Origin: an uncultured Acidobacteriota bacterium
GTDB lineage: Bacteria; Acidobacteriota; Vicinamibacteria; Fen-336
DNA: 64,000 nucleotides
Direction: 5' to 3'
NCBI GenBank assembly: GCA_963720545.1
Contig: OY970399.1
Span: forward strand, 2,336,001-2,400,000
The translations under genes were made by a program, and so were the position numbers. Shown here one piece after another: positions 652-47,063 of the stretch. Below the pieces are notes generated by a model. The model searched no databases. It saw nothing but the letters and a program-made list of their open reading frames with translations, and was not told the DNA's origin. Numbering within the stretch: the first letter of the stretch is position 1; each line of letters starts with the position of its first letter.

Positions 652-1773
652 ATGGAACCGGCGCTCCTGACTGGCCTCACGTTCCTGGCAACTGCAAGCC
701 TCAGCGCCGCGCTGGTGCCGCCGGTGCGCGCGCTGGCGCGCCGCGTCGACGTCATCGACCGTCCCGGAGGACGCCGCGGCCACGTGGCACCCACCCCGCG
801 CCTCGGCGGGCTCGCCATCTTCTGCGCGTTCTTCGCCATCGTCCTCGGCGGCTACTGGCTCGCCCTCACGATGGGCGAAGCCGGCATCGCGCGCACCACC
901 CTCGGCGCGGCGGCGGAGCGGCTGCGCGAGGCGTGGCGGGTCGAGGGCAAGCTGCTCGGCATCATGGCAGGCAGCATCCTCATCTTTGCGGTCGGCATGA
1001 TGGACGACATGTTGGGCGCCCGCTTTCCGGCGCTCGCCAAGCTGCTCGGCGAGCTGGCCGCGGCAGCGATCGTCGTCTATGCGGGCGTGCACACCACCTT
1101 CATGCCCGCCCACTGGATGAACGCGGTGGTGACGCTCCTGTGGATCGTCGGCATGACCAACGCGTTCAACCTGCTCGACAACATGGACGGGCTCGCCGCC
1201 GGCGTCGCGTTCATCGCCGCCTTTGCCCTGCTCGTCAATGCCTGGAGCCTGGGCACCTTCTTCGTCTGCCTCATCCTGGTCGCCTTCATGGGCAGCCTGC
1301 TGGGTTTCCTCCTCTACAACTTCCACCCGGCGTCCATCTTCATGGGTGACGCCGGCAGCCTGTTCATCGGCTTCGTCATGGCGACGATCACGCTGCTCGA
1401 GACTTATGTCTCGAAGGCGTCGAGCTCGCTGTTCCCGGTGCTGATGCCGGTGCTGGTGCTGGCGGTGCCGCTCGTCGATACCGCCACGGTGGTGATCATC
1501 CGGCTGCTCGAGCGGCGTCCGATCTACGTCGGTGACCAGCGCCATCTCTCGCATCGGCTGGTGGCGCTCGGCTTCTCGCGTCCCGCGGCGGTACTGCTCA
1601 TCTACTTGTTTTCGCTCTGCCTCGGGCTGGGTGCCGTCTCCCTGGTCGATGCGACCCCCCTGCAAAGCGCTCTGGTCCTGCTCCAGGCGGTCGTTTTTGT
1701 CACGCTGCTCCTCTTTCTGATGTTCGCGCCGCGCGGGACTGCCCGCGATGCGCTCCAAAGGTCCACCGACTGA
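652..1773 (+). CDS. WecA/TagO-like polyprenyl-phosphate HexNAc-1-phosphate transferase (MraY family)
   Basis: Multi-TM protein with PTPRLGG, GMMDD, NAFNLLDNMDGL, FMGDAGS and HLSHRL motifs. Confidence 0.9.
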   Translation: MEPALLTGLTFLATASLSAALVPPVRALARRVDVIDRPGGRRGHVAPTPRLGGLAIFCAFFAIVLGGYWLALTMGEAGIARTTLGAAAERLREAWRVEGKLLGIMAGSILIFAVGMMDDMLGARFPALAKLLGELAAAAIVVYAGVHTTFMPAHWMNAVVTLLWIVGMTNAFNLLDNMDGLAAGVAFIAAFALLVNAWSLGTFFVCLILVAFMGSLLGFLLYNFHPASIFMGDAGSLFIGFVMATITLLETYVSKASSSLFPVLMPVLVLAVPLVDTATVVIIRLLERRPIYVGDQRHLSHRLVALGFSRPAAVLLIYLFSLCLGLGAVSLVDATPLQSALVLLQAVVFVTLLLFLMFAPRGTARDALQRSTD

Positions 1774-3161
1774 TGTCCACCGCGCTCTTCCTCGCCGCGT
1801 TGCTGCTGGCCCAGGCCCCGGCACCGGCACCGACGCCCTCGCCGGACGTGAGGGCGCTGTTTCCAGAGCCCGAGGCGCCCCCCGAACCGCCGCCGCCCGC
1901 CCCGAGTGAAAACGGACCGCCAGGCATCGCCATCGGCGCGGGCGCGCTGCAGCCGTCGCTGGTCCTGTCGCTGATCCGCGGCGACATCTTTCCGAGCGCC
2001 ACCGCCGAACGCCCGTTCAAGGTGCGCGACACCTACTTCCAGATCGAGCCGCGCCTCAACTTCGTTTATCCGGTGGGCGCGGGCGGCGAGTTTCGCGCCG
2101 GTTACGAACCGGCGTTTCGCCGCGGCAGCGCCCTTCAAGAGGTGACAGCGTCGAGCCACCGGCTCGGCGCCGGGATCGAACTGCCGCTGGGAACGAGCTT
2201 CCTGCTGCGCGCCGCCGATCAGTGGTCGAAGGGCATCCTCGACGTCACCCAGGTGGATCCCGGCCAGGAATATTTCTTCCGCCTGCAGCCCTTCAGGCAC
2301 AACGTCTTCGACGTGAATGGCACGCTCGCGGGCGGCGACACCAGCATCGACGGCGGCGCCACCCTCAGCCGCGTCACGATCGAGCCCGGCTCGGGCTTCT
2401 TCTCGAACCGCTCGCAACAGTATTACGGCGGCATCAGCCGCAGCCTCGCCGCCACGCTGCGGCTGCGCCTCGGTTACACCCGCGAGCGCATCCCGCGCCC
2501 CATCGACCGGCCCGAGGTCGAGAGCCGCGCCAACATCTACACGCTCAGCCTCGACGGCACCCTGGCACCGCTGCTTGACGGGCAGATCTCGGCCGGCTAT
2601 CGCGACCAGAAGACGCCGAACGCCGGCGCCGGCGGCCGGAGCTTCAAGGGTCTGGTGGTCGCCGGGCGCCTCGAGAAGGAGTTCACGCGTTCGACCCGCC
2701 TCGCGCTCTGGGGCAGCCGCGACACCCGCGTGGACCTGCTGCGCCGCAACGGGCTCTACGCGACGACCGGCGGCCAGCCCGAAATCGCACTGCCCACCAC
2801 CTCCGCCTTCGAGGAGAACGCCTTCTACGTCGCCAAGGCATTCAACTCCGAGCTGCAGTTCGAGCTGCCTCTGCAACTCACGGCGCGCGCCGCGGCGCAG
2901 TGGCAGAACAACGAATACCGCACCGTCGCCTCGGCCATCGGCAAGCGGCGCAGCGACGATTTTTTCGGCTGGGCGCTGGGCTTCGGGCGTTCCCTCACAC
3001 GCCACGCCTGGGTGAGAATCGACTATCGTCGTGACCGCCGGGACTCCAACATCGACGTCTTCGACGTCAGGACCGAGGCGCTGCTGGTGCAGCTCGGCTT
3101 TGGCTTCCAGGGATCGCGCGGCCGGCCGAAATTCAGCGGCGGCAGCGAGAGCCAGGACTAG
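1773..3161 (+). CDS. Outer-membrane beta-barrel protein of exopolysaccharide export operon
   Basis: Signal peptide, Pro-rich linker, alternating amphipathic strands; sits between the WecA-like gene and wza with TGATG coupling. Confidence 0.7.
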   Translation: MSTALFLAALLLAQAPAPAPTPSPDVRALFPEPEAPPEPPPPAPSENGPPGIAIGAGALQPSLVLSLIRGDIFPSATAERPFKVRDTYFQIEPRLNFVYPVGAGGEFRAGYEPAFRRGSALQEVTASSHRLGAGIELPLGTSFLLRAADQWSKGILDVTQVDPGQEYFFRLQPFRHNVFDVNGTLAGGDTSIDGGATLSRVTIEPGSGFFSNRSQQYYGGISRSLAATLRLRLGYTRERIPRPIDRPEVESRANIYTLSLDGTLAPLLDGQISAGYRDQKTPNAGAGGRSFKGLVVAGRLEKEFTRSTRLALWGSRDTRVDLLRRNGLYATTGGQPEIALPTTSAFEENAFYVAKAFNSELQFELPLQLTARAAAQWQNNEYRTVASAIGKRRSDDFFGWALGFGRSLTRHAWVRIDYRRDRRDSNIDVFDVRTEALLVQLGFGFQGSRGRPKFSGGSESQD

Positions 3162-3165
3162 GCGG

Positions 3166-4029
3166 ATGAAACTACTGTTGCGCAGCGTCAGGTTCGCATC
3201 GCTCGCCGCCGGCCTGCTCCTCGGCCTGGTCGCGGAAAGCCGCGCCCAGGAAACCGCGGCCGCCGCGCCGGACGAGTATCGTCTCGGCGCCGGCGATGTC
3301 CTCGACGTCATCGTGATCGGCAACCAGGACGCCTCACGCGTCGCACCCATCGATCCCGGCGGCACCATCACGCTGCCGCTCGTCGGCGAGGTGCCGGTGG
3401 CCGGTCGCACCCTCGCGGAGGTGCGCCAGGAGGTGACGGCACTGCTCGCGAAGGACTACCTCGTGAACCCGCAGGTTGACGTGCGCATCAAGGAGTACGG
3501 CAGCCGTTTCGCGCTCGTCGTCGGCGAGATGCGCCAGCCGGGCCGGCGCCCACTGCGCGCCAACAGCCGGCTCATCGACGTGCTCATGGAGGCCGGCGGC
3601 TTCACGCCGCAGGCCTCGGGCGATGTGCTCATCACGCGCGTCGATGGCACGTTCCCGGACGGCAGCAAGAGCCTGCGCGTGCGCATCACCGCGCAGAACG
3701 CGACCGCAGCCGACCACGCCGGCGTCGAAACCACGCTGCACGCGGGCGACATCATCGTGGCGGCGCCCAAGGCCTACGTCATCGTCGAAGGCGAAGTCGC
3801 GCGTCCGGGGCGCTTCGTGATCGACGGCAACCTCACGATCACCGGCGGCATCTCCATCGCCGGCGGCCTCACCCGCTACGGCAGCAGCACCGTGAGGATC
3901 CGCCGCACCGATGCCGCGGGCAAGACCGCGATCACGGAGGTCGATCTGAAGGCGATTCGCAAGGGCAAGGCCGAAGACGTGCTGCTGCAGGCGGACGACG
4001 TCGTCAGCGTCAGCCGCCGCCGGTTCTAG
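3166..4029 (+). CDS. wza: Polysaccharide export protein (Wza/OPX; Poly_export + SLBB domains)
   Basis: YRLGAGDVLDV, GTITLPLVGEVPVAGRT, VEGEVARPG motifs; start moved to ATG 3166 (MKLLLRS signal peptide). Confidence 0.88.
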   Translation: MKLLLRSVRFASLAAGLLLGLVAESRAQETAAAAPDEYRLGAGDVLDVIVIGNQDASRVAPIDPGGTITLPLVGEVPVAGRTLAEVRQEVTALLAKDYLVNPQVDVRIKEYGSRFALVVGEMRQPGRRPLRANSRLIDVLMEAGGFTPQASGDVLITRVDGTFPDGSKSLRVRITAQNATAADHAGVETTLHAGDIIVAAPKAYVIVEGEVARPGRFVIDGNLTITGGISIAGGLTRYGSSTVRIRRTDAAGKTAITEVDLKAIRKGKAEDVLLQADDVVSVSRRRF

Positions 4030-4061
4030 GCGCCAGTGGCTTCGCCCATGGGGAGGACGTA

Positions 4062-6185
4062 GTGCCCGCACCGATCACGCTCGCATCGCCGCCAGGTCCG
4101 GCGCTGCCGGGTGCGCACGCCGAAGAGGCGCGCTTCGACCTGCGCTACTACGCGCACCTCCTGTGGCGCGCGCGGCTGCTGCTGGTGGCGGCCGCCCTCC
4201 TGGGCCTCGGGCTGATGACGCTCTACGGCTACCTGCAGACCCCGGTGTACCGCGCCAACGCCATGCTGCAGATCGAGCCGCCGACGCCGATGCTCATGAA
4301 CGTCACCGATTCGCTTCTCGGCAGCGGCTCGTTCTGGCAGAACGCCGACTTCTACAACACGCAGTTCAAGATCCTCAAGTCGCGGGGCCTGGGCGACAAG
4401 GTGGTGGCGGCGCTGAAGCTCGACGCGCAGCCCGAGTTCAAGGGCGCGCGCGATCCGGGCTCCATCTTCATGGGGCACGTCGAGATCGAGCCCATCCCGG
4501 AGAGCCGGCTCGTCAACGTCAGCATCCGCCACACCGACCCGCAAGCCGCGGCCGACTGGGCGAACGCGCTCGCCGACCTGTTCATCCGCGAATCGGTCGC
4601 CAACCGCATGCAGCAGGCGACGCAGGTGATGGACTGGCTCACCGAGCAGGTGAAGCAGACGCAGGCGTCGATGCAGACGGCGCAGACCGAGCTCATCCAG
4701 GGCCTGCAGCGCCGGGACCTCGCGACGACGCCGGGCGCGCAGTCGACGATGGACGCGTCGATCGAAAGGCTGCAGACCGAGTACCTGGAGGCCAAGACGC
4801 GGCGCATCACCATCGAGGCGGCGCTGACGCAGATCCGCGACCTGCGCAGCCGCGACCTCGGACTGCAGTCGGTGCCGCAGGTGGCGGCCGACCAGCAGAC
4901 CGCGGCGCTCGACGCCGAGCTCGCGGGTCTCGAGTCGCAGCTCTCCATCCTGCGCGGGCGCTTTCGCGAGGGCCACCCCGAAGTGCTGAAGGTGACGGCG
5001 CAGATCGCGCAGACCAGGCGCGCCGTCGCCGACCGGGCCAACGCGGTGGCGGCCGGGCTGCAGGCGGAATACACGCAGCTGCAGAAGCGCGAGTCCGAGC
5101 TGCAGGGCGCGATCGGCGGACAGCGTGCCGCCGCCGTCAACCAGTCGCGCGCCACCGCCGAGATGGAGACGCTGCGCAAGCGCACCGACTCCACCAAGAA
5201 CCTCTACGACGTGCTGCTGCAGAAGCTGAACGAGACCAACATCGCCGCCTCGATGCGCAACAGCAACGCCTCGGTGGTGGAGCGCGCCACCGTGCCGGTC
5301 GCGCCGGTGTGGCCCGACAAGCGCCGCATCGCGCTCTTCGGCCTCGGTGCGGGCCTGCTGGCTGGCGTCGGCCTGGTGCTGTTGCGCGATCACCTCGACA
5401 ACACCTTCAAGGATCCGGAGGAAGTCGAGCGCTACCTGCACACCGAACTGCTCGCGGCGATTCCCAGGGCCGGTGATCCGCGCCTGCTGACCGAGGCTTA
5501 CCAGAACCTGCGCACCGCGCTGCTGTTCGCGCGCCGCTCCGAAGAAGGCCAGATCGTGCTGATCACCGGCACGGCGCCGCAGGAAGGCAAGACCACGACG
5601 CTCGTGAACCTCGGCAAGCTGCTGGCGGCGGCGGGAGAGTCGACGATCCTCGTCGACTGCGACCTGCGGCGCGCGCAGGTGCACGATCGCCTGGGGCTGC
5701 CGCGCGAGCCAGGCGTCACCAACTACTTCACCCAGCACCTCGGCATCGACACCCTGGTGCAGTCGGGCGGCGCGCCCGCGCTCGCGGCGCTCACCGCCGG
5801 ACCGCTGCCGCCCAATCCGCCGGCGCTCCTCGCCCGCGGCCAGCTCGACAACCTGTTTGCCGAGCTGCGGCAGCGCTACCGGTGGATCCTCGTCGACTCA
5901 CCGCCGCTCGCCTCCGTGACCGACGCGCTGCTCCTGGCGCGCCGTTCGGACATGGTGGTCGTGATCGTCAAGCACAACGGCATCGACAAACGGCTGGTGC
6001 GCCGCGCCATTGGCGCGCTACGGCGGGTCGGCGCGCCGCTACTCGGCGTGGTACTGAACATGTTGGAACTGCACGTCGGCAACTACTACTACTACTATTA
6101 CAACCGGCAGGAGAGTCCGCCGGGCGCTGTACCGCAGGTCATCAAGCCCCACTTGCGGCGCGTCGCCGCAGGAGACGACCGCTAG
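4062..6185 (+). CDS. wzc: Polysaccharide co-polymerase / BY-kinase (Wzc/GumC)
   Basis: Two TM segments around coiled-coil region, EAYQNLRT, Walker A APQEGKTT, VDCDLRR, VDSPP, C-terminal Tyr cluster NYYYYYYN. Confidence 0.92.
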   Translation: MPAPITLASPPGPALPGAHAEEARFDLRYYAHLLWRARLLLVAAALLGLGLMTLYGYLQTPVYRANAMLQIEPPTPMLMNVTDSLLGSGSFWQNADFYNTQFKILKSRGLGDKVVAALKLDAQPEFKGARDPGSIFMGHVEIEPIPESRLVNVSIRHTDPQAAADWANALADLFIRESVANRMQQATQVMDWLTEQVKQTQASMQTAQTELIQGLQRRDLATTPGAQSTMDASIERLQTEYLEAKTRRITIEAALTQIRDLRSRDLGLQSVPQVAADQQTAALDAELAGLESQLSILRGRFREGHPEVLKVTAQIAQTRRAVADRANAVAAGLQAEYTQLQKRESELQGAIGGQRAAAVNQSRATAEMETLRKRTDSTKNLYDVLLQKLNETNIAASMRNSNASVVERATVPVAPVWPDKRRIALFGLGAGLLAGVGLVLLRDHLDNTFKDPEEVERYLHTELLAAIPRAGDPRLLTEAYQNLRTALLFARRSEEGQIVLITGTAPQEGKTTTLVNLGKLLAAAGESTILVDCDLRRAQVHDRLGLPREPGVTNYFTQHLGIDTLVQSGGAPALAALTAGPLPPNPPALLARGQLDNLFAELRQRYRWILVDSPPLASVTDALLLARRSDMVVVIVKHNGIDKRLVRRAIGALRRVGAPLLGVVLNMLELHVGNYYYYYYNRQESPPGAVPQVIKPHLRRVAAGDDR

Positions 6186-6206: not shown

Positions 6207-7565
6207 CTACTCCTGGCTCGACGGTGCGCTGGCCTGGACCGGGCTCGGGACTTCCGGGATCGGCACGAAGGGGGAGACGCCAGGAACCGTCGGCGGCTCG
6301 CCGGCAGTCGGAGCCGGCTGCCCGGGAACTGCGACGTGAGTGACCTGCTGTCCCGACGGCGGGTTGGGCTGGGGCGGTGCCACGTCCGCGCAGCTTGCGC
6401 CCATGCTGGCGCGGTTTTCCTTGCGCAGGAAATCAACGGCGTCGACCATCTTGCTGCGCGTGACCGGACCGTCCGGGCCGAGTTCGAGGCCGAGGCCCTT
6501 GAGGGCCGCGACGTACGCGTCCGCGCCGGCCTGCTTGCGCTGCACACGCACAGCTTCGACGGTGGAGTTGGGGCCGAGGCGCACCGCGACCGCGTGTGGG
6601 CCGGCAGTGAAGTCGGATGACAGCACCGGCGTCCATTCGCCCGCAGCGGTGCCGCGCCGCGAGCCGGTGCAGACCACTTGCTTCTTGCAGCCGTCTGCCG
6701 TCCACTGCTGCCCGCCGTTCAGGTTGCCCTTGACGGAGACGGTGTAGAGGCCGGCTTCGGGAACCTGGAACGTGAGCAGGCCTTCGGCGCCTTGCGGGCC
6801 GGAGTCGAAGTTGTCCGTAACGGCCGCCTGCCGCAGCGCCGGCAGGTAGCGTGCGATGGCGCTGCCCGGCAGGTCGAGCGGCACGCCGGCGGGGGCGAGT
6901 TCCGATTCCTTGTCGAGCGCGCGCAGCGTCGTCACCGCCACGTCGTCGGTGGTCGCGACCTTCGCGGTCTGCCAGCCGCCGAGCGGCTCGATGTTGGTGA
7001 CGCACGGCGGCACCACTTCGAAGCGATCGAGCGAAGTGCCGGGCGGCAGCAGCACCGAGGCGAGGTAAGCGCCGCCTGCGAGCTGCACGCGGCCGCCGTC
7101 GACCCAGGCCGCCTGCGCCGCGGGGCGCAGCGTGAACGTAGCGAGCGGCTTGTCGCCCTTGCGATCCGTCACTTCGACGGACGCCGGCTTGTCGGCCGGG
7201 CCGCTGAGGTGTGCGCGAATCTGGTATTCGCCGGGGCGTGCGACGGTGAGCGGATAGCTCGCCTGCCCGACGCCCGCTTCGGCGGCGACCGCGTTCGGCG
7301 GGTCGCCGAGCACGCGCACCGCATCGGCTTTCTCGAACTCGCTGCCCTTGAAAGCCAGGCTCGAGTGCCACGCGAGAGCGCCGAAGGCAACCGACGCCGT
7401 GTCCATTCCCGGGCTTTCGAGGTCGAGGCCACGCAGCATCATGCGCGCCCATTCCGGGTGGCTGACGGCGGACACCCGAGGGTCTCCGTAGAGCGGATAA
7501 AGCAGAGCGAAGCCGACGGTAACCGCAGCCGCGACCGCAATGCCGAGGGAGCTTTTCGACTGCAT
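6207..7565 (-). CDS. Hypothetical exported protein with two probable beta-sandwich (CBM-like) repeats and Pro-rich tail
   Basis: 452-aa ORF with N-terminal hydrophobic segment and GC3-rich codon usage; SD-like GAGG upstream. Confidence 0.7.
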   Translation of the reverse strand: MQSKSSLGIAVAAAVTVGFALLYPLYGDPRVSAVSHPEWARMMLRGLDLESPGMDTASVAFGALAWHSSLAFKGSEFEKADAVRVLGDPPNAVAAEAGVGQASYPLTVARPGEYQIRAHLSGPADKPASVEVTDRKGDKPLATFTLRPAAQAAWVDGGRVQLAGGAYLASVLLPPGTSLDRFEVVPPCVTNIEPLGGWQTAKVATTDDVAVTTLRALDKESELAPAGVPLDLPGSAIARYLPALRQAAVTDNFDSGPQGAEGLLTFQVPEAGLYTVSVKGNLNGGQQWTADGCKKQVVCTGSRRGTAAGEWTPVLSSDFTAGPHAVAVRLGPNSTVEAVRVQRKQAGADAYVAALKGLGLELGPDGPVTRSKMVDAVDFLRKENRASMGASCADVAPPQPNPPSGQQVTHVAVPGQPAPTAGEPPTVPGVSPFVPIPEVPSPVQASAPSSQE

Positions 7566-7590: not shown

Positions 7591-7639
7591 TTGACAACTT
7601 GTCCACGGCTAACTTAGCCTCCGAGGCCAGGCATGTCAA
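7591..7639. promoter_or_regulatory. Overlapping divergent sigma70-like promoters
   Basis: Plus: TTGACA 7591-7596, 18 bp, TAGCCT 7615-7620. Minus: TTGACA 7639-7634, 17 bp, TAAGTT 7616-7611. Confidence 0.5.
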
Positions 7640-8691
7640 AGTGTATCCAACACACTCTCATAGACATAGCCCGGGTTCGTCACCTCAAGCGGGTGCCTTC
7701 CGGCATGCCCGGGAACGACCTTTGCCGCGCCGCCGAACGGCAGGGGGTCCTGGCCCTCTTCGGCCCCTCGAAACCACCCGTCTTCGCCGCCGCGATGGTG
7801 CGCGAGGCGGTGCGCACCACCCGGCTCCTCGACCTCGCGCTGCGCCTCCAGGCGCACCTCGAAACACTCGGTGTGCGCTCGCTCACTTTGAAGGGCGCAG
7901 CACTCCACGGCACGGCTTACCCGGATGTCGAGAGCCGTCCGATGGTCGACGCCGACCTGTTGGTGCTCGACGACATCGCGAGCGCCGAGGCGGCGGCGCG
8001 TTCGCTCGGCCTCGTGTTCGTCGAGCGCGCCGATCACGCCGTCGCGTATCGCGAACCCCGAAGTGGCGCGATGGTCGAGCTGCACTGGAGCGTCACCTCG
8101 GCGCCCGGGTTCTTTCCGGTCGACAAGGAATCGCTTTGGCGCGGCCGCCGCCGGCTCGCCACGGGCCTCTTGGCGCCGTCGGCCGCCGACACGCTGGTGC
8201 TGCTCGCGCTGCACGCGGCGTTTCAGCACGGCCTGGTGCTGCGGCTGGTGCAACACGGCGACTTCCACGCCTTGTTGGCGAGTGAGGGGCCCGATCCGCG
8301 GCGCATCGTCGCGCGCGCCGCCGAGTGGCGTGCGGGCCTCGCCGTGGTTGCTGCACTGCAGATCGCCGGCCACTTGCTCGGCACGCCGGACCGAGCGGCA
8401 GCGGTGCTCGCCGAGCTGCGCGATTTCCGGCTGCGCGGGCCGCTCGCGCGCCACGTCGCGAGCGCGGCGGAAACGCCCGAACGCTTTCTCGAGCCGGCCG
8501 AGCCGCGCCTCGCGATGGTGCGCCTCTCACTGGCGCGCGGGCACCGACTCGACCTCGTGCGCCGCACGCTCTGGCCGCTCTCGCCCGACGACGGGAGCGC
8601 GCGCGGCTTCACTCGCGCCGCTTTGGGCGTGCGCCGCGGCGCGCGCCTCGTCGGCCGCCATTTCGCCGGCTGGGCCGGCAGCGCGTCGTGA
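7633..8691 (+). CDS. Nucleotidyltransferase family protein (NTP_transf_5-like)
   Basis: LKGAAL..YP..SRPMVDADLLV and VELHW motifs, L..HAA.H further downstream; start codon uncertain. Confidence 0.8.
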   Translation: MSKCIQHTLIDIARVRHLKRVPSGMPGNDLCRAAERQGVLALFGPSKPPVFAAAMVREAVRTTRLLDLALRLQAHLETLGVRSLTLKGAALHGTAYPDVESRPMVDADLLVLDDIASAEAAARSLGLVFVERADHAVAYREPRSGAMVELHWSVTSAPGFFPVDKESLWRGRRRLATGLLAPSAADTLVLLALHAAFQHGLVLRLVQHGDFHALLASEGPDPRRIVARAAEWRAGLAVVAALQIAGHLLGTPDRAAAVLAELRDFRLRGPLARHVASAAETPERFLEPAEPRLAMVRLSLARGHRLDLVRRTLWPLSPDDGSARGFTRAALGVRRGARLVGRHFAGWAGSAS

Positions 8692-9119
8692 TCGATCACG
8701 ACGGCGCCGCGAGCGCAGCCGTCGCGCGCGAGGCCGTCGCGTTGAACCTCGCGGCCGCGGCCTCGGTGTGCATCCGCGTCAGCGGCCGCTGCATGGAACC
8801 GGCGCTGCTCGCGGGCGAACTGGTGGAGCTGCGGCGCACGCGGCCGCGGGTGGGCGACGTGGTGCTGGCGCAGCTGCCGCAGGGCCTGCGGCTGCATCGC
8901 CTGCTGCTGAAGCTGCCGCTCGGCGCTGGCTGGCGCACCAAGGGCGACCGCTGCGACCCGTGGGACGCGAAGATCTCCGGCCGCGAGGTGATCGCCACGG
9001 TGGTGCGCTCGTGCGCCACCGGCCGTACGCCCCATAGCCGCGGATTGGCTCTGCGTTCGCTCGCGTCTGCGCTACGCTGGCGCCTGCGCGTGCAGCGCAT
9101 CAAGCCGGAGGGACAATGA
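8688..9119 (+). CDS. S24/S26 peptidase-like protein (Cys at the canonical catalytic Ser position)
   Basis: VSGRCMEPAL..GDVV..LHRL..TKGD..D; GTG start overlaps upstream stop (GTGA). Confidence 0.72.
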   Translation: MIDHDGAASAAVAREAVALNLAAAASVCIRVSGRCMEPALLAGELVELRRTRPRVGDVVLAQLPQGLRLHRLLLKLPLGAGWRTKGDRCDPWDAKISGREVIATVVRSCATGRTPHSRGLALRSLASALRWRLRVQRIKPEGQ

Positions 9120-9433
9120 CGCACAACCCGCTGCGCACCATCTACGCGCGCTCCGACCGCATCGTCGGCCGGCGTATCGGCCCGGAGTTCGTGCTGGTGC
9201 CGCTCGTCGGCCACGGCGCCGAGCTCGAGGCGATCTACAACCTCGGCGGCGCGGGCGTCTTCATCTGGGAGCGGATCGACGGCCGCACCGACGGCGACAC
9301 CATCGTCGACGAGATGATCGCGGCGTTCGACGTGCAGCGCCCGGAAGCGGCGGAAGACTACGCGACCTTTACCCGCCACCTCGTCGAGATCGGCGCCCTG
9401 AAGGTGGTTTCGGCGCCGATCCGCCGGAAATGA
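9116..9433 (+). CDS. Stand-alone PqqD-family RiPP recognition element (RRE)
   Basis: RRIGPEFVLVP..IYNLGGAGVFIWERIDG..IVDEM..FDV..A..D...F...LVEIGAL pattern; ATGA-coupled. Confidence 0.88.
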   Translation: MTHNPLRTIYARSDRIVGRRIGPEFVLVPLVGHGAELEAIYNLGGAGVFIWERIDGRTDGDTIVDEMIAAFDVQRPEAAEDYATFTRHLVEIGALKVVSAPIRRK

Positions 9434-10301
9434 TCGCGCCCACGGCTGCCACCGCCGAGGCGTCCTTGCGAAAGGCGAGCGAGTAGCTCGGCACCGCGCG
9501 CGCGAAGCTCTCTGCGGTGCGCAGCACCGCGAAGAAGGCAGCCGGCTCCCACGGCGGCAGGAACGAAAAGGCCAGCAGCTGGCTGGCGAAGCCCTGCGGC
9601 TCGATGCGCGTGAGCGCGGTGGTGCGCGACTGCTTCAGCACGAACAGTGCCCGCAGCCGCAACGCGCGCGGCGCGGCATGGCGCGCGGTGCCGTGCCACG
9701 GCGTGCCGTACGCCCACCACTGACCGCGCCGCCGGCGGATCACGAGACGATCGTCGCTCAACACGCTGGCGAGCGGAGCATGCCGGCGAAACAGGCGGCT
9801 GATCGTGGACTTGCCCGCCCCCGAATGGCCGGTGAACGCCACCAGGCCGCGGCCGGTGTCGACGCCGCTCGCATGCAGCACCAAGCCGCCGTCGTAGGCG
9901 AAGTGGTGCTGCAGCAGCAGCTCGTCGAGCGGGAACGAAAGCGCGAAGCCGCGGTGAGCGAGGTACTCGCCCGGCGCCAGGTAGAGCGTGCCACGGCGGC
10001 GGCGACGGTCGATGAGGAGGCCGCGTGCCGGCGGGCCCTTGCCCATGGGGCGGCGAAAGACGTAAAGGATCTTCGCGCCGACTTCGTACGCGCGCCAGGT
10101 TCCGCCCGATTCGAAGACCGGTGCTGCGTCTGGCACCGGCACCGGCGCCAGCACCACCTCGAGGTCGATGTCGGCGCCGCTTTTTGCGCCGAACGCTTCG
10201 TAGCCGCGTGGCAGGCGCAGCGCCGGTGCCCTGGTGTCGTAGCGGAGCCTGATGGTCCTGCCGCCGATGCGCAGCCGCAGGCTGTGGGCGCGCCGCCGCA
10301 G
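9369..10301 (-). CDS. HPr-kinase-like P-loop protein (ScmC-like RiPP accessory)
   Basis: LHASGV, Walker A GHSGAGKST, LSDDR and YGTPWHG motifs in the 3' part of ORF 9369..11513; start uncertain (no ATG; CTG at 10301 just after the rSAM stop). Confidence 0.75.
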   Translation of the reverse strand: MRRRAHSLRLRIGGRTIRLRYDTRAPALRLPRGYEAFGAKSGADIDLEVVLAPVPVPDAAPVFESGGTWRAYEVGAKILYVFRRPMGKGPPARGLLIDRRRRRGTLYLAPGEYLAHRGFALSFPLDELLLQHHFAYDGGLVLHASGVDTGRGLVAFTGHSGAGKSTISRLFRRHAPLASVLSDDRLVIRRRRGQWWAYGTPWHGTARHAAPRALRLRALFVLKQSRTTALTRIEPQGFASQLLAFSFLPPWEPAAFFAVLRTAESFARAVPSYSLAFRKDASAVAAVGAIISGGSAPKPPSGRRSRRGGG

Positions 10302-10306
10302 GACGG

Positions 10307-11587
10307 CTAGCTGCGGGCCGCGGCCGCTGCGGCGCGGACCGGGCGCTCGATCTGGATCAGCGCTTGCGCCTGCGGCTGCGCGGGTTCCGAGTGGCTGCAC
10401 GAACCGCAGCCGCCGAGGTGAATCTCGGCATCGGGTCGCGCGGCGAGCACGCCCGCTCCGACGCAGCACGTCGCGTCGCGGCGATGGCCGCTGTCCTTGC
10501 CGAGCGCCGCGAACGCGCGCAGGTGCGTGACCTCGCAGAAGTTGCGCAGCAGCGCCGTCGGGTCGCCGGTGGCAAGCTCGGCCGAACCCGGGCAGTTGCC
10601 GCAGCCGCTGCGCAGCGTGCACGACTGGCATACCGAGTTGTCCTGCCACTGGCGCGAGCGAGCCTGCGGCAGGAACTCGTTCCAGCCGGTGTCGAAGCTG
10701 CCTTGCTTCAGGTCGTAGGAAGCCTTGCGCGCCAGCTGGCACAACTGCAGCTGGCCATAGGGATCGACGGTGAACGACATCTGCCCGGCGCCGCACTCGA
10801 ACACCTGCTCGGCCACGGCGATGCGCACCTCGCCGCCCGCGGCCGCCGCCGCCGGCGCAAAGGCGTTCCAGATCTTCGCGCGGGTCAACTCGTCCGCGAG
10901 GTCCACCGCGAGAATGTCCTCGGCGTTCACCTGCAGCTCGCCGTTGCGGTTGGCGCCGCAGTCGACGCGCGCGTTCAGCAGGCTGTCGTGGCGGAAGCTG
11001 GTGCCGAGGTTCGCGGCGAAAGCGCGCATCGCCTCGATCTCGTGGACGTTCCAGGAGAGCACCATGGTCTTGAGCTTGAGGTTCAGGCCGCGGCGATAGA
11101 GGCGCTCGATGCCGGCTATGCACTTCTCGAACGAGCCCGGCACGCGGGTGACGCGGTCGTAGGTCGCCTTCGTCATCCCGTAGAGCGTGACCTCGATGGC
11201 GGCGGGACGATGCGCGCTGAGGAAGTCGGCGATGTCCTCGGTGACCATGGTCGCGTTGGTGAAGATGCCGACGCGCAGGCCGCGGCCCAGCGCGTGCAGG
11301 TAGATCTGCCTGAAGTCCCTGCGGATCAGGACCTCGCCGCCGGTGAGCAGCAGCTCGAAGGCGCCGGCGTCCGCCACCTCGTCGATCAGCGTCTTCACCC
11401 GTTCCGTCGACAGCTCGCGGCGCATCTCTTCCGCGTCGCCCGCCGGCTTGTTGACGTAGCAGTGGACGCAGTTGAGGTTGCAGCGGAAGGAGGTCTCGAT
11501 GGTTCCGTCCCACGGCAGACGCCGGCCGCTGACGTCGAGGCTGTGGGCGAAATCGGCGATCGAGATTTCGTCGAGTACGGTCGTCAT
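10307..11587 (-). CDS. Radical SAM/SPASM domain peptide maturase
   Basis: CNLNCVHC, LTGGE, SPASM CGAG..VDPYG..C and CQSC...CGNCPG...C. Confidence 0.92.
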   Translation of the reverse strand: MTTVLDEISIADFAHSLDVSGRRLPWDGTIETSFRCNLNCVHCYVNKPAGDAEEMRRELSTERVKTLIDEVADAGAFELLLTGGEVLIRRDFRQIYLHALGRGLRVGIFTNATMVTEDIADFLSAHRPAAIEVTLYGMTKATYDRVTRVPGSFEKCIAGIERLYRRGLNLKLKTMVLSWNVHEIEAMRAFAANLGTSFRHDSLLNARVDCGANRNGELQVNAEDILAVDLADELTRAKIWNAFAPAAAAAGGEVRIAVAEQVFECGAGQMSFTVDPYGQLQLCQLARKASYDLKQGSFDTGWNEFLPQARSRQWQDNSVCQSCTLRSGCGNCPGSAELATGDPTALLRNFCEVTHLRAFAALGKDSGHRRDATCCVGAGVLAARPDAEIHLGGCGSCSHSEPAQPQAQALIQIERPVRAAAAAARS

Positions 11588-11612
11588 CCGGGCTTCCCGA
11601 GCCCCGCGCGGG

Positions 11613-11774
11613 CTAGCTGCCCTGAGCCGAGTTGATGAGGGTGCCGCCGCGGTTGCAGACGTTCGCGGACACCATGTTTCGCTTGCAGCCCGTCACGGCC
11701 AGCTCATCGGCAACAAGGTTCACTTTGCGAATCCGGGGTGTCTCGTAAGTGGCCTTCGCCTGCTTCGTCTTCAT
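11613..11774 (-). CDS. Putative RiPP precursor, 53 aa (MKTKQAKATYETPRIRKVNLVADELAVTGCKRNMVSANVCNRGGTLINSAQGS)
   Basis: Translated by hand; GGAAGAGGAG SD before ATG 11774; YxxPxI RRE-binding-type motif; co-oriented 25 bp upstream of the rSAM gene. Confidence 0.85.
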   Translation of the reverse strand: MKTKQAKATYETPRIRKVNLVADELAVTGCKRNMVSANVCNRGGTLINSAQGS

Positions 11775-11801
11775 TGACTCCTCTTCCGGCTCGACGGCTC
11801 G

Positions 11802-11872
11802 GGTAGCCTAAGCCCTACCTCGCGCGGGTGTAAAGCCGCGCGTTGACACTGTGCTCTGCCTCACGCTACCCT
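11802..11872. promoter_or_regulatory. Back-to-back sigma70-like promoters for the precursor operon and fur, with two inverted repeats
   Basis: Minus: TTTACA 11834-11829, 18 bp, TAGGCT 11810-11805. Plus: TTGACA 11843-11848, 18 bp, TACCCT 11867-11872. IRs GGTAG-N8-CTACC and CGCGCGG-N8-CCGCGCG. Confidence 0.5.
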
Positions 11873-11886
11873 CGCCATTCGAAAAA

Positions 11887-12375
11887 GTGAGCGCCCGGGG
11901 AAAGAACGAAACGGCCCGCGAAGAGCGCGAAGTCCTCACCGCGCACCTCGCGGCCAACGGCCTGAAACGCAGCGCCCAGAGAGACGCCGTGGTCGAGGTG
12001 TTCTTCCGCTCCGACAGCCACCTCTCGGTGGACGACCTGCTGAAGCTGGTGAAGCGCAAGAACCCGGCGGTGGGACGCACCACCGTCTATCGCACCTTGA
12101 AGCTGCTCACCGCCGCCGGCCTCGCGACCGAGCTGCAGCTGCGCGGCGAGACCCGCTTCGAGCGCGAATACAAGCGCCACCATCACGACCACTTCATCTG
12201 CAACGGCTGCGGCGCGATCTTCGAGTTCTCGAACGACGAGATCGAGCGCGCTCAGGACGATGCCGCGCAGGAGATCGGCTTCACCATCCAGGGCCACCGC
12301 CACCAGATCTTCGGCTTGTGCGCCGCGTGCACGGCCAAGGCGGCGGCGCCGCACGCCGCATCCCGGCCCGCCTAA
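11887..12375 (+). CDS. fur: Fur-family transcriptional regulator
   Basis: TTVYRTLKLL helix, HHHDHFICNGCG and GLCAAC; start at GTG 11887 chosen from the promoter position; Fur vs Zur vs PerR not resolved. Confidence 0.9.
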   Translation: MSARGKNETAREEREVLTAHLAANGLKRSAQRDAVVEVFFRSDSHLSVDDLLKLVKRKNPAVGRTTVYRTLKLLTAAGLATELQLRGETRFEREYKRHHHDHFICNGCGAIFEFSNDEIERAQDDAAQEIGFTIQGHRHQIFGLCAACTAKAAAPHAASRPA

Positions 12376-14798: not shown

Positions 14799-16640
14799 AT
14801 GCCGATGCCGATGAGGCCGACCGCCTGGCTGGCGCTTTTGTCGCTGGTGCTCGCGCCGCCTGCGCTCGCCGACGAAAAACCGGGCGCGCAGAAGAAGGAG
14901 CAGACGCCGGTCGGCACCTGGACCGTGGAACAGCAGCAGGCGCCGCCCAAGGAGGGCAGCCTCTACGAGGAAGCGCTGCGCGCGGCGCCGATCCTCTGGT
15001 TCTCCGACGACGAGCCGCTCCTCAAGGTGCGCAACGGCACCCGCCTCTTCATCCCCGGACCGCTGCCGTGCGACCCCGCGGCCGACCGCGACCGGCCGGT
15101 CGTCTACTACAAGCTCGACAACGTGCGCGTCAACCGGGCGCTCAAGCCCTACGAGCGCACCGCGGTGTACGAGGGGCGGCTGCCGCTCGACTCGATCCGC
15201 CACATGCGCATCAACTACTACTTCTATTACCCCGAGGACAAGGGCCTCGAGCCGCACATCCACGACATCGAGAGCATCAGCATCGAGCTCGACGTCGAGC
15301 GCGACAAGCAGGGACGCGCGCGCGTCGAGCGCAACCGCGTCACCGGCTGGGCGCACGGCTCGGAGCTGATGGCGAACATCCTGCAGATCAAGCCGAGCCT
15401 GCGCAGCGGCAGCGGCGCGCCCGACACCCGCTCGCCGATCACCATCCTGGTGGAGGAGGGCAAGCACGCGAGCTCGCCCGACCGCAACGGCGACGGCGTC
15501 TACACCCCGGGCGTCGACGTCAACGTGCGCGTCGCCGATGCCTGGGGCATTCGCGACGTGTTCGGCAGTGGCGTCATCGGCTCGCGCTACCAGGCGCAGA
15601 TGAGCAAGAACCGCCTGACGCCGGTGATGGCGGGCACCCTGGAGCTGACGCGCGGCCTCGACGACCTCGCGCGCCAGATGGCTGAACTACGGAAGCGCGT
15701 GGACAACGCACCTGCTCCCGCACCCTCGCCCGCGGCAGCCATCGCGGCCGCCCAGGAGGCCGCGGCGCAGGCCACGTTCGATCCCGGCCGCTACCGCATC
15801 GGCCCGAAGCTGCCAGCCGACCACAAGGTGCTGCAGACCTACGAAGAGGAGCGCCTCGTGAATGGCGGCCTCGAGTACCCGAGCGTGCAATACCAGCTGC
15901 GCGACATCACCAGGATCGGCGACGCGCCCTGCGCGACCGAGCCCGCACCGTTTCCGCGCGGCTTCAAGAAGCCGGCCGACGGCGTCGCCGACGACCACGG
16001 CCGGCTCGACTGGAAGCGCCAGGGTCACATCTTCGCGGCTGCCTGCCCCGAACCCGAGACGCCGCACGACACCACAGGCCGCGTCGACGCCGGCGAGGAC
16101 GCAATCCTCATTCCGGAGCCCGACAGCTGCGGCTACCTCAACCTGCCGGCTTCGGTTGCCGAGCTGCAGGGCCGGCCGCCGATCAACCGCAGCAAGTTCA
16201 CGTACAAGTACGGCAAGTGGTGGCCAATCCAGCCGTTTCGCAACGCCTTTCTCGGCGCGCGCTACGACCGCGGCGGCAAGGGCATCACGGCCGGCTTCTA
16301 CTCCGGCTATGGTCTGCCCAAGGTCGGCGGCTGGTTCAACGCCGGCGTCACCATGGTGCGCCGCCAGGAGCACTGGGTGATCGCGACCAACGTCTGGTTC
16401 ACGCCGTCGATCGCGACTCTCGCCACCTGGTATGCGGGCGTCGGCTACGACAACGAAAACAAGTCGCTCGCGGACACCACCGGACATTTCGCGCTCGAGG
16501 GCGGCGTCCAGGTGCGCCACAACGTCCTTGGGTTACGGATCGGCGTGCGCTCGCGCCTGTCGAGCGGCGGCCTGCGCAACTCGGGCATCGTCAGCGAGTT
16601 CGTGTTTGGCCCGACGCCGCGAGGGACGCGGGTCCATTAG
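14799..16640 (+). CDS. Hypothetical exported protein (613 aa) with beta-strand-rich C-terminus
   Basis: Signal peptide ending ALA, strong GC3 bias, YYFYYP..H.HDIE and DRNGDG motifs. Confidence 0.75.
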   Translation: MPMPMRPTAWLALLSLVLAPPALADEKPGAQKKEQTPVGTWTVEQQQAPPKEGSLYEEALRAAPILWFSDDEPLLKVRNGTRLFIPGPLPCDPAADRDRPVVYYKLDNVRVNRALKPYERTAVYEGRLPLDSIRHMRINYYFYYPEDKGLEPHIHDIESISIELDVERDKQGRARVERNRVTGWAHGSELMANILQIKPSLRSGSGAPDTRSPITILVEEGKHASSPDRNGDGVYTPGVDVNVRVADAWGIRDVFGSGVIGSRYQAQMSKNRLTPVMAGTLELTRGLDDLARQMAELRKRVDNAPAPAPSPAAAIAAAQEAAAQATFDPGRYRIGPKLPADHKVLQTYEEERLVNGGLEYPSVQYQLRDITRIGDAPCATEPAPFPRGFKKPADGVADDHGRLDWKRQGHIFAAACPEPETPHDTTGRVDAGEDAILIPEPDSCGYLNLPASVAELQGRPPINRSKFTYKYGKWWPIQPFRNAFLGARYDRGGKGITAGFYSGYGLPKVGGWFNAGVTMVRRQEHWVIATNVWFTPSIATLATWYAGVGYDNENKSLADTTGHFALEGGVQVRHNVLGLRIGVRSRLSSGGLRNSGIVSEFVFGPTPRGTRVH

Positions 16641-16776: not shown

Positions 16777-17202
16777 GTGTTCAAAGGCACTTACCGCTAC
16801 AAGATCGACCCGAAAGGACGCCTTCCGGTGCCGCCGGCGTTTCGCCGCGCGCTCGCCCGGCAGGGCCAGTCGCTGGTGGTGACGCCGCTCGATTCCTGCC
16901 TCGCCGTCTACACCGAAACCGAGTGGGAAAGGCTGCGCCAGCAGCTCGAGAGCCTGCCGGCCTTTTCTCGCCAGGCGCTCACGCTCACCCGGCTGGTGGC
17001 GAGCCGTGCGGTCGATGCGGCACTCGACGTCCAGGGCCGCCTGCTGTTGCCGGCGCCGCTGCGCTCCGCCGCGCATCTCACCCGCGACGCGGTCGTCGTC
17101 GGGGTCTTGAGCCGGTTCGAGATCTGGGGCGCCGCCTCCTGGGACAGCTTCGTGAAGGACGCCGAGAAGCTCCTCGACGAAGCCGGGTTTCCGGGAGTGT
17201 GA
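16777..17202 (+). CDS. mraZ: MraZ transcriptional regulator, paralogue 1
   Basis: MFKG..IDPKGRLPVP and LDVQGRLLLP..LR..VVVG..FEIW. Confidence 0.9.
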   Translation: MFKGTYRYKIDPKGRLPVPPAFRRALARQGQSLVVTPLDSCLAVYTETEWERLRQQLESLPAFSRQALTLTRLVASRAVDAALDVQGRLLLPAPLRSAAHLTRDAVVVGVLSRFEIWGAASWDSFVKDAEKLLDEAGFPGV

Positions 17203-17251
17203 TCCAGCTTTCTTCCACAGGCTAGGTCCCGTCTTTCGTTCGCTTTTCGCC

Positions 17252-17310
17252 TTGACTAAGGTTCCGACGGGCCCATAGACTCGCCGTGGCTTTTTGTGGG
17301 CGAAAGTGGG
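17252..17310 (+). promoter_or_regulatory. sigma70-like promoter with three 10-bp-phased GTGG MraZ boxes
   Basis: TTGACT 17252, 18 bp, TAGACT 17276; GTGG at 17286, 17296 and 17306. Confidence 0.65.
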
Positions 17311-17311
17311 C

Positions 17312-17755
17312 ATGCTTCGCGGTAATCATCCAGCTCGGGTCGACGACAAGGGACGCCTCAAGATCCCCAACGGATTTCGCTCGTTCATCACGTCCCAGCA
17401 CGGCACCGAGCTGTTCGTCACGAGCCTCAGCGGCGAGCACGTCCGCATCTATCCCATGCCGATCTGGCTCGAGATCGAGCGCAAGCTTCTGACCGTCCCG
17501 TCCACCAACCCGTCGCGGGCCCGCTTCCTCGACCGGGTGAACTTCTTCGGCCAGGCCGTTTCGCTCGACCCGCAGGGCCGGGTACTGCTGCCGCAGCTGC
17601 TGCGCGAACGCGCCGCGATGCAGGGCGACGTCTGCGTCCTCGGCCTGCAGAACCAGCTCGCCGTGTGGAACAAGGAGCGCCTCAGCGAGCGGCTCTTCAA
17701 GCAGGACCCGTTCACCGACGAGGACGCCCGCGCGCTCTCGGAGTTCGGGATCTGA
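17312..17755 (+). CDS. mraZ: MraZ transcriptional regulator, paralogue 2
   Basis: MLRG..VDDKGRLKIP and LDPQGRVLLP..LRE..VLG..VW. Confidence 0.92.
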   Translation: MLRGNHPARVDDKGRLKIPNGFRSFITSQHGTELFVTSLSGEHVRIYPMPIWLEIERKLLTVPSTNPSRARFLDRVNFFGQAVSLDPQGRVLLPQLLRERAAMQGDVCVLGLQNQLAVWNKERLSERLFKQDPFTDEDARALSEFGI

Positions 17756-39109: not shown

Positions 39110-39161
39110 AGACACCGCGGGCAATCGCGTCCTTGCCGCTAAACTGTTGAGTGGCAAGCCA

Positions 39162-46636: not shown

Positions 46637-46987
46637 ATGGAACGTCGCGAATTCAGCAAGATCATGGGCGCAGTTGTCGGCGGCATGGTTGCGGGCTCGA
46701 AGTTGGCCCCTTCCGTCTTTGCCGGCGACGAGCATGCGAAGCACACCTGTAAAGGCAAGAACGAATGTAAGGGCCAGGGCGGATGCAAGACTGGCGACGG
46801 CGGATGCGCCGGGAAGAATTCCTGCAAGGGCAAGGGTGGCTGCGCCACGACTGCCAAGCACGATTGCAAGGGCAAGAACGACTGCAAGGGCCAGGGCGGA
46901 TGCTCCACCGGCGACGGCGGCTGCGCCGGCAAGAACTCTTGCAAGGGCAAGGGCGGCTGCGCGGTTCCGGCGAAGAAGAAGGAGTAG
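46637..46987 (+). CDS. Cys-rich MNIO RiPP precursor (BufA2-like) with twin-arginine-like signal
   Basis: MERREF..hydrophobic..VFA; four CxGKNxCKGxGGC units, 12 Cys; directly upstream of DUF692. Confidence 0.88.
   Translation: MERREFSKIMGAVVGGMVAGSKLAPSVFAGDEHAKHTCKGKNECKGQGGCKTGDGGCAGKNSCKGKGGCATTAKHDCKGKNDCKGQGGCSTGDGGCAGKNSCKGKGGCAVPAKKKE
46736..46963 (+). repeat. 117-bp (39-aa) tandem duplication inside the precursor
   Basis: AKHTCKGKNECKGQGGCKTGDGGCAGKNSCKGKGGCA vs AKHDCKGKNDCKGQGGCSTGDGGCAGKNSCKGKGGCA. Confidence 0.9.
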
Positions 46988-47000
46988 TTTCTACACCTTC

Positions 47001-47062
47001 GGCGGAAGGTCGGCGCCGGCGCTCCTCACGGGTGCCGGCCGGGCCTTCCGCCTTTTCTTTTT
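47001..47062 (+). terminator. Intra-operonic hairpin with U-tract
   Basis: GGCGGAAGG (47001) pairs with CCTTCCGCC (47044-47052), inner GCCGGC pair, followed by TTTTCTTTTT. Confidence 0.75.
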
Positions 47063-47063
47063 C

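Follow-up and report, generated by a model that had tools for sequence, protein, structure and literature searches.

A six-gene RiPP cassette in an uncultured Acidobacteriota bacterium and its putative place as a radical SAM branch of the LPP and paeninodin-type phosphopeptide pathways

In this work, we analyzed a stretch of 64,000 nucleotides (hereafter the window) from an uncultured Acidobacteriota bacterium of the class Vicinamibacteria (GCA_963720545.1, contig OY970399.1, positions 2,336,001 to 2,400,000) and found a cassette for a peptide that is made ribosomally and then post-translationally modified (RiPP). The cassette encodes a precursor peptide, a radical S-adenosylmethionine (SAM)/SPASM maturase, an HPr-kinase-like kinase, a nucleotidyltransferase (NTase), an S26 peptidase similar to signal peptidase I (SpI), and a stand-alone RiPP recognition element (RRE). 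These six genes operate as one system, which we read, with moderate confidence, as a cytoplasmic radical SAM branch of the LPP and paeninodin-type phosphopeptide pathways. Its features are as follows.

7633..8691, plus strand: NTase of the PsmN/LppN type (PF14907, 117.8 bits against a cut-off of 31.2); the start may lie up to 24 codons later
8688..9119, plus strand: S26-like leader peptidase, 143 aa (no Pfam match; TIGR02228 at E 0.006; profile match to SEC11A at E 2e-4)
9116..9433, plus strand: stand-alone RRE of the PqqD/B1 type (PF05402, 49 bits)
9369..10301, minus strand: HPr-kinase-like kinase, about 310 aa (intact motifs; putative CTG start at 10301)
10307..11587, minus strand: radical SAM/SPASM maturase, 426 aa, without a fused RRE (PF04055; SPASM cysteines)
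11613..11774, minus strand: precursor peptide, 53 aa (leader/core pattern and codon test)
11778..11783, minus strand: Shine-Dalgarno-like GAGGAG ahead of the precursor (from the sequence)
11805..11834, minus strand: possible promoter of the precursor operon, TTTACA-18 nt-TAGGCT (by eye)

Gene content and conservation of the cassette

All six open reading frames (ORFs) lie where the original prediction had put them, and the plus-strand overlaps that it named, GTGA (8688-8691) and ATGA (9116-9119), are present; it mentioned neither the exopolysaccharide (EPS) surroundings nor the conservation of the terminal Ser, both described below. The 3' ends of the kinase and RRE genes overlap by 65 bp. The kinase gene has no ATG, GTG, or TTG at the expected start, where 14 of the 15 relatives examined were assigned one of these codons, and judging from the sequence, translation likely starts at CTG 10301. 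A TAGACT-like hexamer was found upstream of 18 of the 26 precursors examined; a strict scan found no sigma-70 site at the locus, and the terminator and promoter scans gave results at chance level. The source genome is a single contig, 94.8% complete, and contains one copy of each cassette gene, the precursor included, with the RRE gene being its sole PqqD.

Matches to the maturase at E 1e-60 or better were found in 56 of the 201 genomes of the class, with the closest named relatives in Vicinamibacteria and Acidobacteriota, and no plasmid match was found at E 1e-40. Among the 60 maturase loci compared, in which contig ends account for some missing neighbors, a precursor lies beside the maturase in 57 and a kinase in 54, and PqqD and NTase genes were each found in 27 of the closest 28 genomes. 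Homologs of the maturase are thus accompanied by the short ORF and the accessory genes, as expected for the single RiPP system, with a radical SAM enzyme acting on a short peptide, that had been predicted. Within the family of the window's genome, PqqD was found in 26 of the 31 genomes with the maturase and 3 of the 22 without it, and the NTase in 25/31 and 4/22, respectively, although kinship keeps these genomes from counting as independent, and a gene missed in a draft assembly is not thereby absent.

The gene order differs among relatives. All genes are on the maturase strand in 33 of the 38 loci with an accessory gene, and the co-directional order NTase, S26, PqqD, precursor, maturase, and kinase was found in five genomes (labeled G011, G149, G053, G071, and G202), of which G011 has its cassette between wzc and fur, like the window, and G053 has an ABC exporter between the NTase and S26 genes. 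The two convergent operons of the original prediction are therefore real in this genome but not conserved, and we reject them as a family trait. Because relatives keep the co-directional order, the layout in the window is most simply explained by a putative local inversion of three genes; no repeats were found at the presumed inversion ends. In another subclade, the precursor, maturase, and kinase genes have been relocated and the NTase, S26, and PqqD genes remain between wzc and fur.

The window precursor has a 29-aa leader, containing Tyr10-x-x-Pro13 and Glu24, and a predicted 24-aa core that begins with Cys30-Lys31, contains Cys40 and Asn48, and ends with Gly52-Ser53. When 22 leader codons were compared with those of 25 relatives, 158, 102, and 271 differences were found at codon positions 1, 2, and 3, respectively, and 131 of the 347 conserved residues have a synonymous codon. 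Because third-position and synonymous changes dominate, this ORF is coding rather than a chance occurrence. No NCBIfam model fits these precursors. A search with the precursor only returned itself and one near copy, and the family was assembled from genome neighborhoods: a first set of 38, collected by a regular expression that required Gly/Ala-Cys-Lys, was replaced by a profile collection of 60 distinct precursors; one further precursor, that of locus L055, failed the register test and is not counted among the 60.

In this set, the leader Tyr is invariant (60/60), and the spacing from Tyr-x-x-Pro to Cys-Lys is 20 residues in all 60, a register that was imposed on these sequences and was found unforced in 38/38 of the earlier set. 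The last residue is Ser in 59 and Thr in one, with Gly at -2 in 58; in the leader, Glu is found at -6 in 56, Val/Ala at -3 in 54, and Gly/Ala at -1 in 55. The cores belong to two types. Those with three Cys (50/60) have the last Cys at -6 from the C-terminus in 45 and a Cys-x4/5-Cys pair in 47, while those with two Cys (10/60, including the window) always have the second Cys 14 from the end and, in 9/10, Asn at -6 in the place of the last Cys of the other type. What the two types share is limited to Cys+1, Lys+2, and the Gly-Ser end. In the maturase tree, which is a quick tree of 55 rows that excludes pieces shorter than 300 aa, all nine two-Cys loci form one clade (SH-aLRT 93), which ties enzyme to substrate, yet follows descent too. 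Two precursors per locus were observed in L086 (genome G041), where tandem two-Cys precursors precede the maturase, and in L008 (Chloroflexi).

Proposed maturation and tailoring steps

From the genes, their motifs, conservation, and linkage, we infer a series of chemical steps. The first would very likely be binding of the Tyr-x-x-Pro leader by the RRE. The closest structural neighbors of the RRE are lasso B1 proteins, with TbiB1 the nearest, and its Asp81, which is invariant, and Phe85 align with Asp70 and Phe74 of LppB. According to the available part of the LPP report, these two residues hold the leader Tyr and Pro, with Asp70 hydrogen-bonded to the Tyr (PMC13381572).

Second, the kinase would very probably add one or more phosphates to the terminal Ser53. 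GTPWxG is intact in this protein, as are the His, Walker A, and SDDR motifs, and the last three, with the Asp-Asp pair, are conserved in 26 sequences; matches to TIGR04355 and ScmC were weak and under cut-off, and a profile match to HPr kinase (2qmh/1jb1; E 4e-4) was weak. In the pseudomycoidin pathway, as far as the available part of its report goes, PsmK phosphorylates the terminal Ser, and a hexose is added to the phosphate in a PsmN-dependent manner that requires a DxD pair (PMC6993621).

Third, the maturase contains CxxxCxxC at residues 36/40/43 and SPASM cysteines at 265, 283, 320, 323, 329, 332, and 351. The latter seven align one-to-one with those of the thioether enzyme CteB, and the best structural match is SkfB. 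CteB reportedly has an open site, and NxxcB is said to form a Cys-Asn linkage. The maturase, for which a single open site is predicted at the first auxiliary cluster, may well join the sulfur of a core Cys to a carbon of another residue as a thioether; Cys30-Gly52 and Cys40-Asn48 are candidate pairs, offered as guesses. It is rather unlikely that the same pathway involves a different radical SAM reaction, namely, oxidation of the invariant first Cys (formylglycine-like), epimerization, or modification of the invariant Lys, with the other Cys in a disulfide. Such a reaction would fit the few positions common to both core types, the Cys-x4/5-Cys pair could be a disulfide, and the top NCBIfam matches of the maturase (NirJ2, MftC, and AhbD) are not thioether enzymes. 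However, the CteB-like SPASM pattern and the Asn that replaces the last Cys in two-Cys cores argue against it, and aromatic crosslinks are unlikely because Trp/Tyr occur in only 1/60 cores. In the clade of the window's enzyme, the maturase C-terminus (window 10307-10480, minus strand) is a clade-specific Cys-rich tail with Cys-Cys and Cys-x-x-Cys, of low pLDDT (predicted local distance difference test) and unfolded in the model. In the same clade, one additional Cys is conserved around residue 211, and these features may point to a further metal site.

Fourth, the RRE-docked peptidase, with a Cys-His-Asp triad, is likely to cut off the leader, probably between Gly29 and Cys30. The -3/-1 rule of signal peptidases governs the residues before a cleavage site, and the leader residues before Cys satisfy it, which favors cleavage there. 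The peptidase is soluble and of the SEC11/SipW type, with Cys35-His70-Asp93 (plus Asp87) in place of Ser-His-Asp; in the profile alignment, Cys35 takes the position of the SEC11A catalytic Ser, so the predicted designation as Cys-type was apt. No structure matched the peptidase model at E 0.001 in a Foldseek search, whose best rows were SipA, SPC-C, and LexA/UmuD. Among the best 150 of 19,816 matches (50% representatives), the nucleophile is Cys in 120 and Ser in 16, with 14 truncated; all of the 16 Ser-type peptidases fall in the last 19 of these 150 ranks, and 11 of the 150 are NTase-S26 fusions. In the maturase tree, peptidases beside the close clade of 28 rows (support 96) are all Cys-type, while those outside are all Ser-type. 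The triad positions match those of LppS (Ser29/His68/Asp93), an SpI-like enzyme that, in the available part of its report, cleaves the leader in an RRE-dependent manner (PMC13381572).

A complex model of the RRE, precursor, and peptidase scored 0.62, compared with 0.01 for the best of three controls and 0.00 once the RRE was swapped out. Of 157 solved complexes, 116 attained this mark, as did 2 of 215 mismatched pairs, a calibration that is only rough with the custom alignments used here. The runs agreed in at least 55% of contacts with partner pLDDT of at least 82, and helix 1 of the peptidase rests on the sheet of the RRE, an arrangement that the published model for LPP shows too.

Fifth, the NTase would, somewhat more probably than otherwise, activate the phosphoserine for coupling to a sugar. 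Its Asp106-x-Asp108 is invariant in eight sequences and is the counterpart of the PsmN pair, which favors NTase-dependent sugar coupling. Both phosphorylation and NTase-dependent tailoring, as raised in the original prediction, are judged likely.

The possible exopolysaccharide link and the fate of the product

The cassette adjoins a Wzx/Wzy-type EPS locus, with the following neighbors in the window.

652..6185, plus strand: end of the EPS locus (WecA/MraY-family transferase, outer-membrane barrel, Wza, and Wzc), as context
6207..7565, minus strand: 452-aa membrane-anchored protein without a family, divergent from the NTase gene and in the same place in relatives
11851..12375, plus strand: Fur-family regulator, divergent from the precursor gene; it follows NTase-S26-PqqD in relatives

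Upstream of the window are genes for GT2/GT4 glycosyltransferases, methyltransferases, and an AsnB-type amidotransferase, as well as ORFs that by eye resemble a flippase and a polymerase; to the right of the cassette are the Fur gene, MenC-like and FolC-like genes, and the dcw cluster. The 452-aa protein has a weak feature likeness to carbohydrate-binding modules (CBM35/DUF5077 clusters; score <0.9), which is a lead only. In the sixth step, the product may perhaps be joined to, or exported with, the neighboring surface polysaccharide, although we regard this as tentative. LPP and paeninodin clusters are located in capsule loci too, and three acidobacterial SpI rows in the available LPP supplement look, by eye, fused to a Wza-like domain (PMC13381572). 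In 22 of 45 genomes, no more than 10 kb separate the NTase gene from wzc, and in one more the two lie within 15 kb.

Several observations weigh against the proposed pathway. In the same comparison, the NTase gene is on another contig than wzc in 20/45 and far away on the same contig in 2/45. For the maturase gene in 26 close genomes, the distance to wzc is at most 10 kb in two, with three far on one contig and 21 on other contigs; given these distances, it is the NTase and not the maturase that carries the EPS link. Furthermore, wzc is as common in genomes without the maturase (21/22) as in those with it (27/31), and the cassette contains no exporter gene. The maturase passes no curated cut-off and has at most 20% identity to solved enzymes, and the precursor profile partly builds in the Cys-Lys conservation. 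The complex model leaves the scissile bond unplaced, its confident contacts end at precursor residue 24, and it may pass by resembling RRE-leader structures. A heterologous test of LppN gave no detectable effect, according to the available part of the report (PMC13381572).

We consider it unlikely that the product is secreted as a free peptide with a signaling, antimicrobial, or metal-binding role, with the EPS neighbors representing a mere surface-gene island. The separation of the precursor, maturase, and kinase genes from the other three in at least nine close genomes, the cassettes remote from wzc in G053, G014, and G134, the variable cores, and the adjacent Fur gene would suit such a peptide. 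However, the NTase gene remains beside wzc even where the maturase gene has been relocated, no exporter or immunity gene was found, there is a single precursor, and related phospho-lasso peptides are without antibacterial activity in the available part of their report (PMC6993621).

Another reading, which we consider quite unlikely, is that the peptide is a molecular linker: its phosphoserine end would be attached to surface polysaccharide, and at its N-terminus the Cys/Lys amine would be the acceptor to which C25 (PorU-like) transpeptidase domains transfer secreted proteins. A giant secreted C25-domain protein is encoded within the stretch compared at 19 of the 60 maturase loci (about one expected by chance), the His-Cys dyad is intact in 20/20 complete C25 domains, and a C25 gene is present in 31/31 family genomes with the maturase and 12/22 without it. 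PorU has been described, in the available part of the source, as a sortase that links proteins to a seryl-sugar amine (PMC7468200). The proximity of C25 genes to the maturase supports the linker reading only, and on the other side, the sole C25 gene of this genome is 2 Mb away, C25 genes are also found without the maturase, and a shared island location together with kinship could account for the association. In its boldest form, which is likewise quite unlikely, the peptide would be the ribosomal adaptor of a new Gram-negative surface-anchoring system: macrocyclized by the radical SAM enzyme, freed by a cysteine signal peptidase I, bound to EPS through a Ser phosphodiester, and offering its N-terminal Cys/Lys as the C25 acceptor for giant proteins. 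The only C25 protein of this genome (G000:C1 approximately 350570-354480, or L073:7570-11478, plus strand; about 1300 aa) is secreted, has a C-terminal His-Cys domain, and by eye contains a linker motif like that of type IX secretion system cargo; its homologs flank the cassette in relatives.

Comparison with known systems

The proposed radical SAM branch is closest to the linear polyphosphorylated peptides (LPP; LppA/K/B/S/D/N; Bacillota), for which the comparison covers the available parts of the 2026 report (PMC13381572). Both systems have a discrete Tyr-type RRE, an HprK-like kinase, a PF14907-type NTase, an SpI-like leader peptidase, and a Tyr-x-x-Pro leader, and both lack a cyclase and are located in polysaccharide loci. 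The cassette differs in its acidobacterial host and in adding the radical SAM/SPASM enzyme. Its peptidase keeps the fold, His, and Asp of the LPP Ser-His-Asp enzyme, but the nucleophile is Cys35. The LPP leader is YxxPxVLxHQxIxFETxxS with core Ser3, whereas the cassette shares only YxxP, has Arg at core position 3 in the window, has its conserved Ser at the terminus, holds Cys in the core, and has a leader spacing of 20 rather than 16. LPP clusters also contain an MsbA-like exporter, which is absent from the window. Radical SAM is unmentioned in the available main text, and the supplement, as available, contains 10 acidobacterial SpI rows, all Ser-type, with no precursor listed (PMC13381572).

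The phospho(glyco) lasso peptides paeninodin and pseudomycoidin (PsmK/PsmN; PMC6993621, available part) share the terminal Ser, the HprK-like kinase, the DxD NTase, and the B1-type RRE; the cassette has a radical SAM enzyme instead of the macrolactam cyclase, B2 protease, and ring Asp/Glu. Sactipeptide and ranthipeptide maturases (CteB and SkfB) share the seven-Cys SPASM pattern, a Cys-containing precursor, and RRE dependence, but the cassette has its RRE as a separate protein and adds the kinase, NTase, and SpI-type peptidase, and its maturase is below every family cut-off (bits/cut-off: StsB 89/625, AlbA 60/850, and PapB 58/340). SynChlorMet (TIGR04248-04251) shares a PqqD-like protein, an HPrK-fold ScmC-like protein, and radical SAM/SPASM enzymes, of which the cassette has one. 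The original prediction had pointed to this system for its similar inventory, but all four models score far under cut-off (ScmD 29.7/100, ScmC 22.4/125, ScmE 88/400, and ScmF 74.9/400), and the LPP toolkit is nearer. SEC11/SipW signal peptidases (S26B) share the fold and the His/Asp/Asp positions, while the cassette enzyme has a Cys nucleophile and an RRE-docking helix and lacks a membrane anchor. By these sequence comparisons, the cassette appears to use tailoring steps like those of LPP and of pseudomycoidin and to fall outside both of them and SynChlorMet.

A lasso peptide, a SynChlorMet cassette, or a lipidated (diacylglycerol; family definition from the available part of PMC13056109) RiPP is scarcely credible, and these readings were rejected. 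Although the leader is lasso-like, the RRE is closest to TbiB1, an AsnB-like gene lies 8 kb upstream, and Val-Thr-Gly-Cys is lipobox-like, the window core has no Asp/Glu (at core positions 7-9 in only 3/60), the B2 protease (PF13471) is not over cut-off anywhere in the genome, the PF00733 protein encoded close by belongs to the glutamine-dependent AsnB type, with a glutaminase domain and a place inside the EPS locus, the Scm models are below cut-off, and only 5-6 uncharged residues precede the Cys in 60/60, so there is no signal h-region. A PQQ precursor core contains Glu and Tyr. PQQ was also rejected, with the maturase scoring 61.9/381 bits with the PqqE model and the core containing neither residue. 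As predicted, the window was found to have neither a lasso cyclase nor a YcaO, LanM, or peptide exporter among the 12+20+37 ORFs scanned against Pfam, with window ORFs picked by codon bias rather than exhaustively; one MacB/FtsX permease is encoded 42 kb off.

The predicted novelty of combining the kinase, NTase, RRE, and SpI does not hold since this is the LPP toolkit, published in 2026 according to the available part of the report (PMC13381572). The view that the cluster had not been characterized fared better: over incomplete literature coverage, which makes the result weak, we found no published account of a cluster with radical SAM, HPrK, NTase, and SpI or of a natural S26 enzyme with a Cys nucleophile. 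As far as this literature reached, it also contained no account of the toolkit's union with radical SAM, of the precursor family, or of the Cys-type peptidase; the radical SAM enzyme and the precursor do not belong to the LPP and paeninodin families, and the window contributes a clade of Cys-nucleophile peptidases, a two-Cys precursor type, and a split EPS linkage.

According to PMC13381572, what PF14907 NTases and phosphorylated RiPPs do in polysaccharide loci is unknown, and the cassette represents a compact, single-copy, single-precursor test system for this question in a one-contig genome. It adds a radical SAM reaction that seems uncharacterized so far, and in its peptidase the signal peptidase I fold carries a natural Ser-to-Cys switch that is fixed across the clade. 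Should the product prove to be attached to EPS, an abundant lineage of soil bacteria would have a RiPP-polysaccharide conjugate.

Other features were observed in the window, all on the plus strand. A 613-aa secreted protein without a Pfam match is encoded at 14799-16640, and two tandem MraZ genes head the dcw cluster (16777-17755). A B12-binding-like radical SAM gene (PF19864) lies beside a GT4 gene at 39147-40964, with no link to the cassette seen. In a second RiPP locus (46637-47918), the gene for a 116-aa precursor, which is rich in Gly, Cys, and Lys and has an N-terminus of the export type, precedes that for a DUF692/MNIO enzyme (PF05114, 352 bits); this pair looks like a bufferin/oxazolin-type system.

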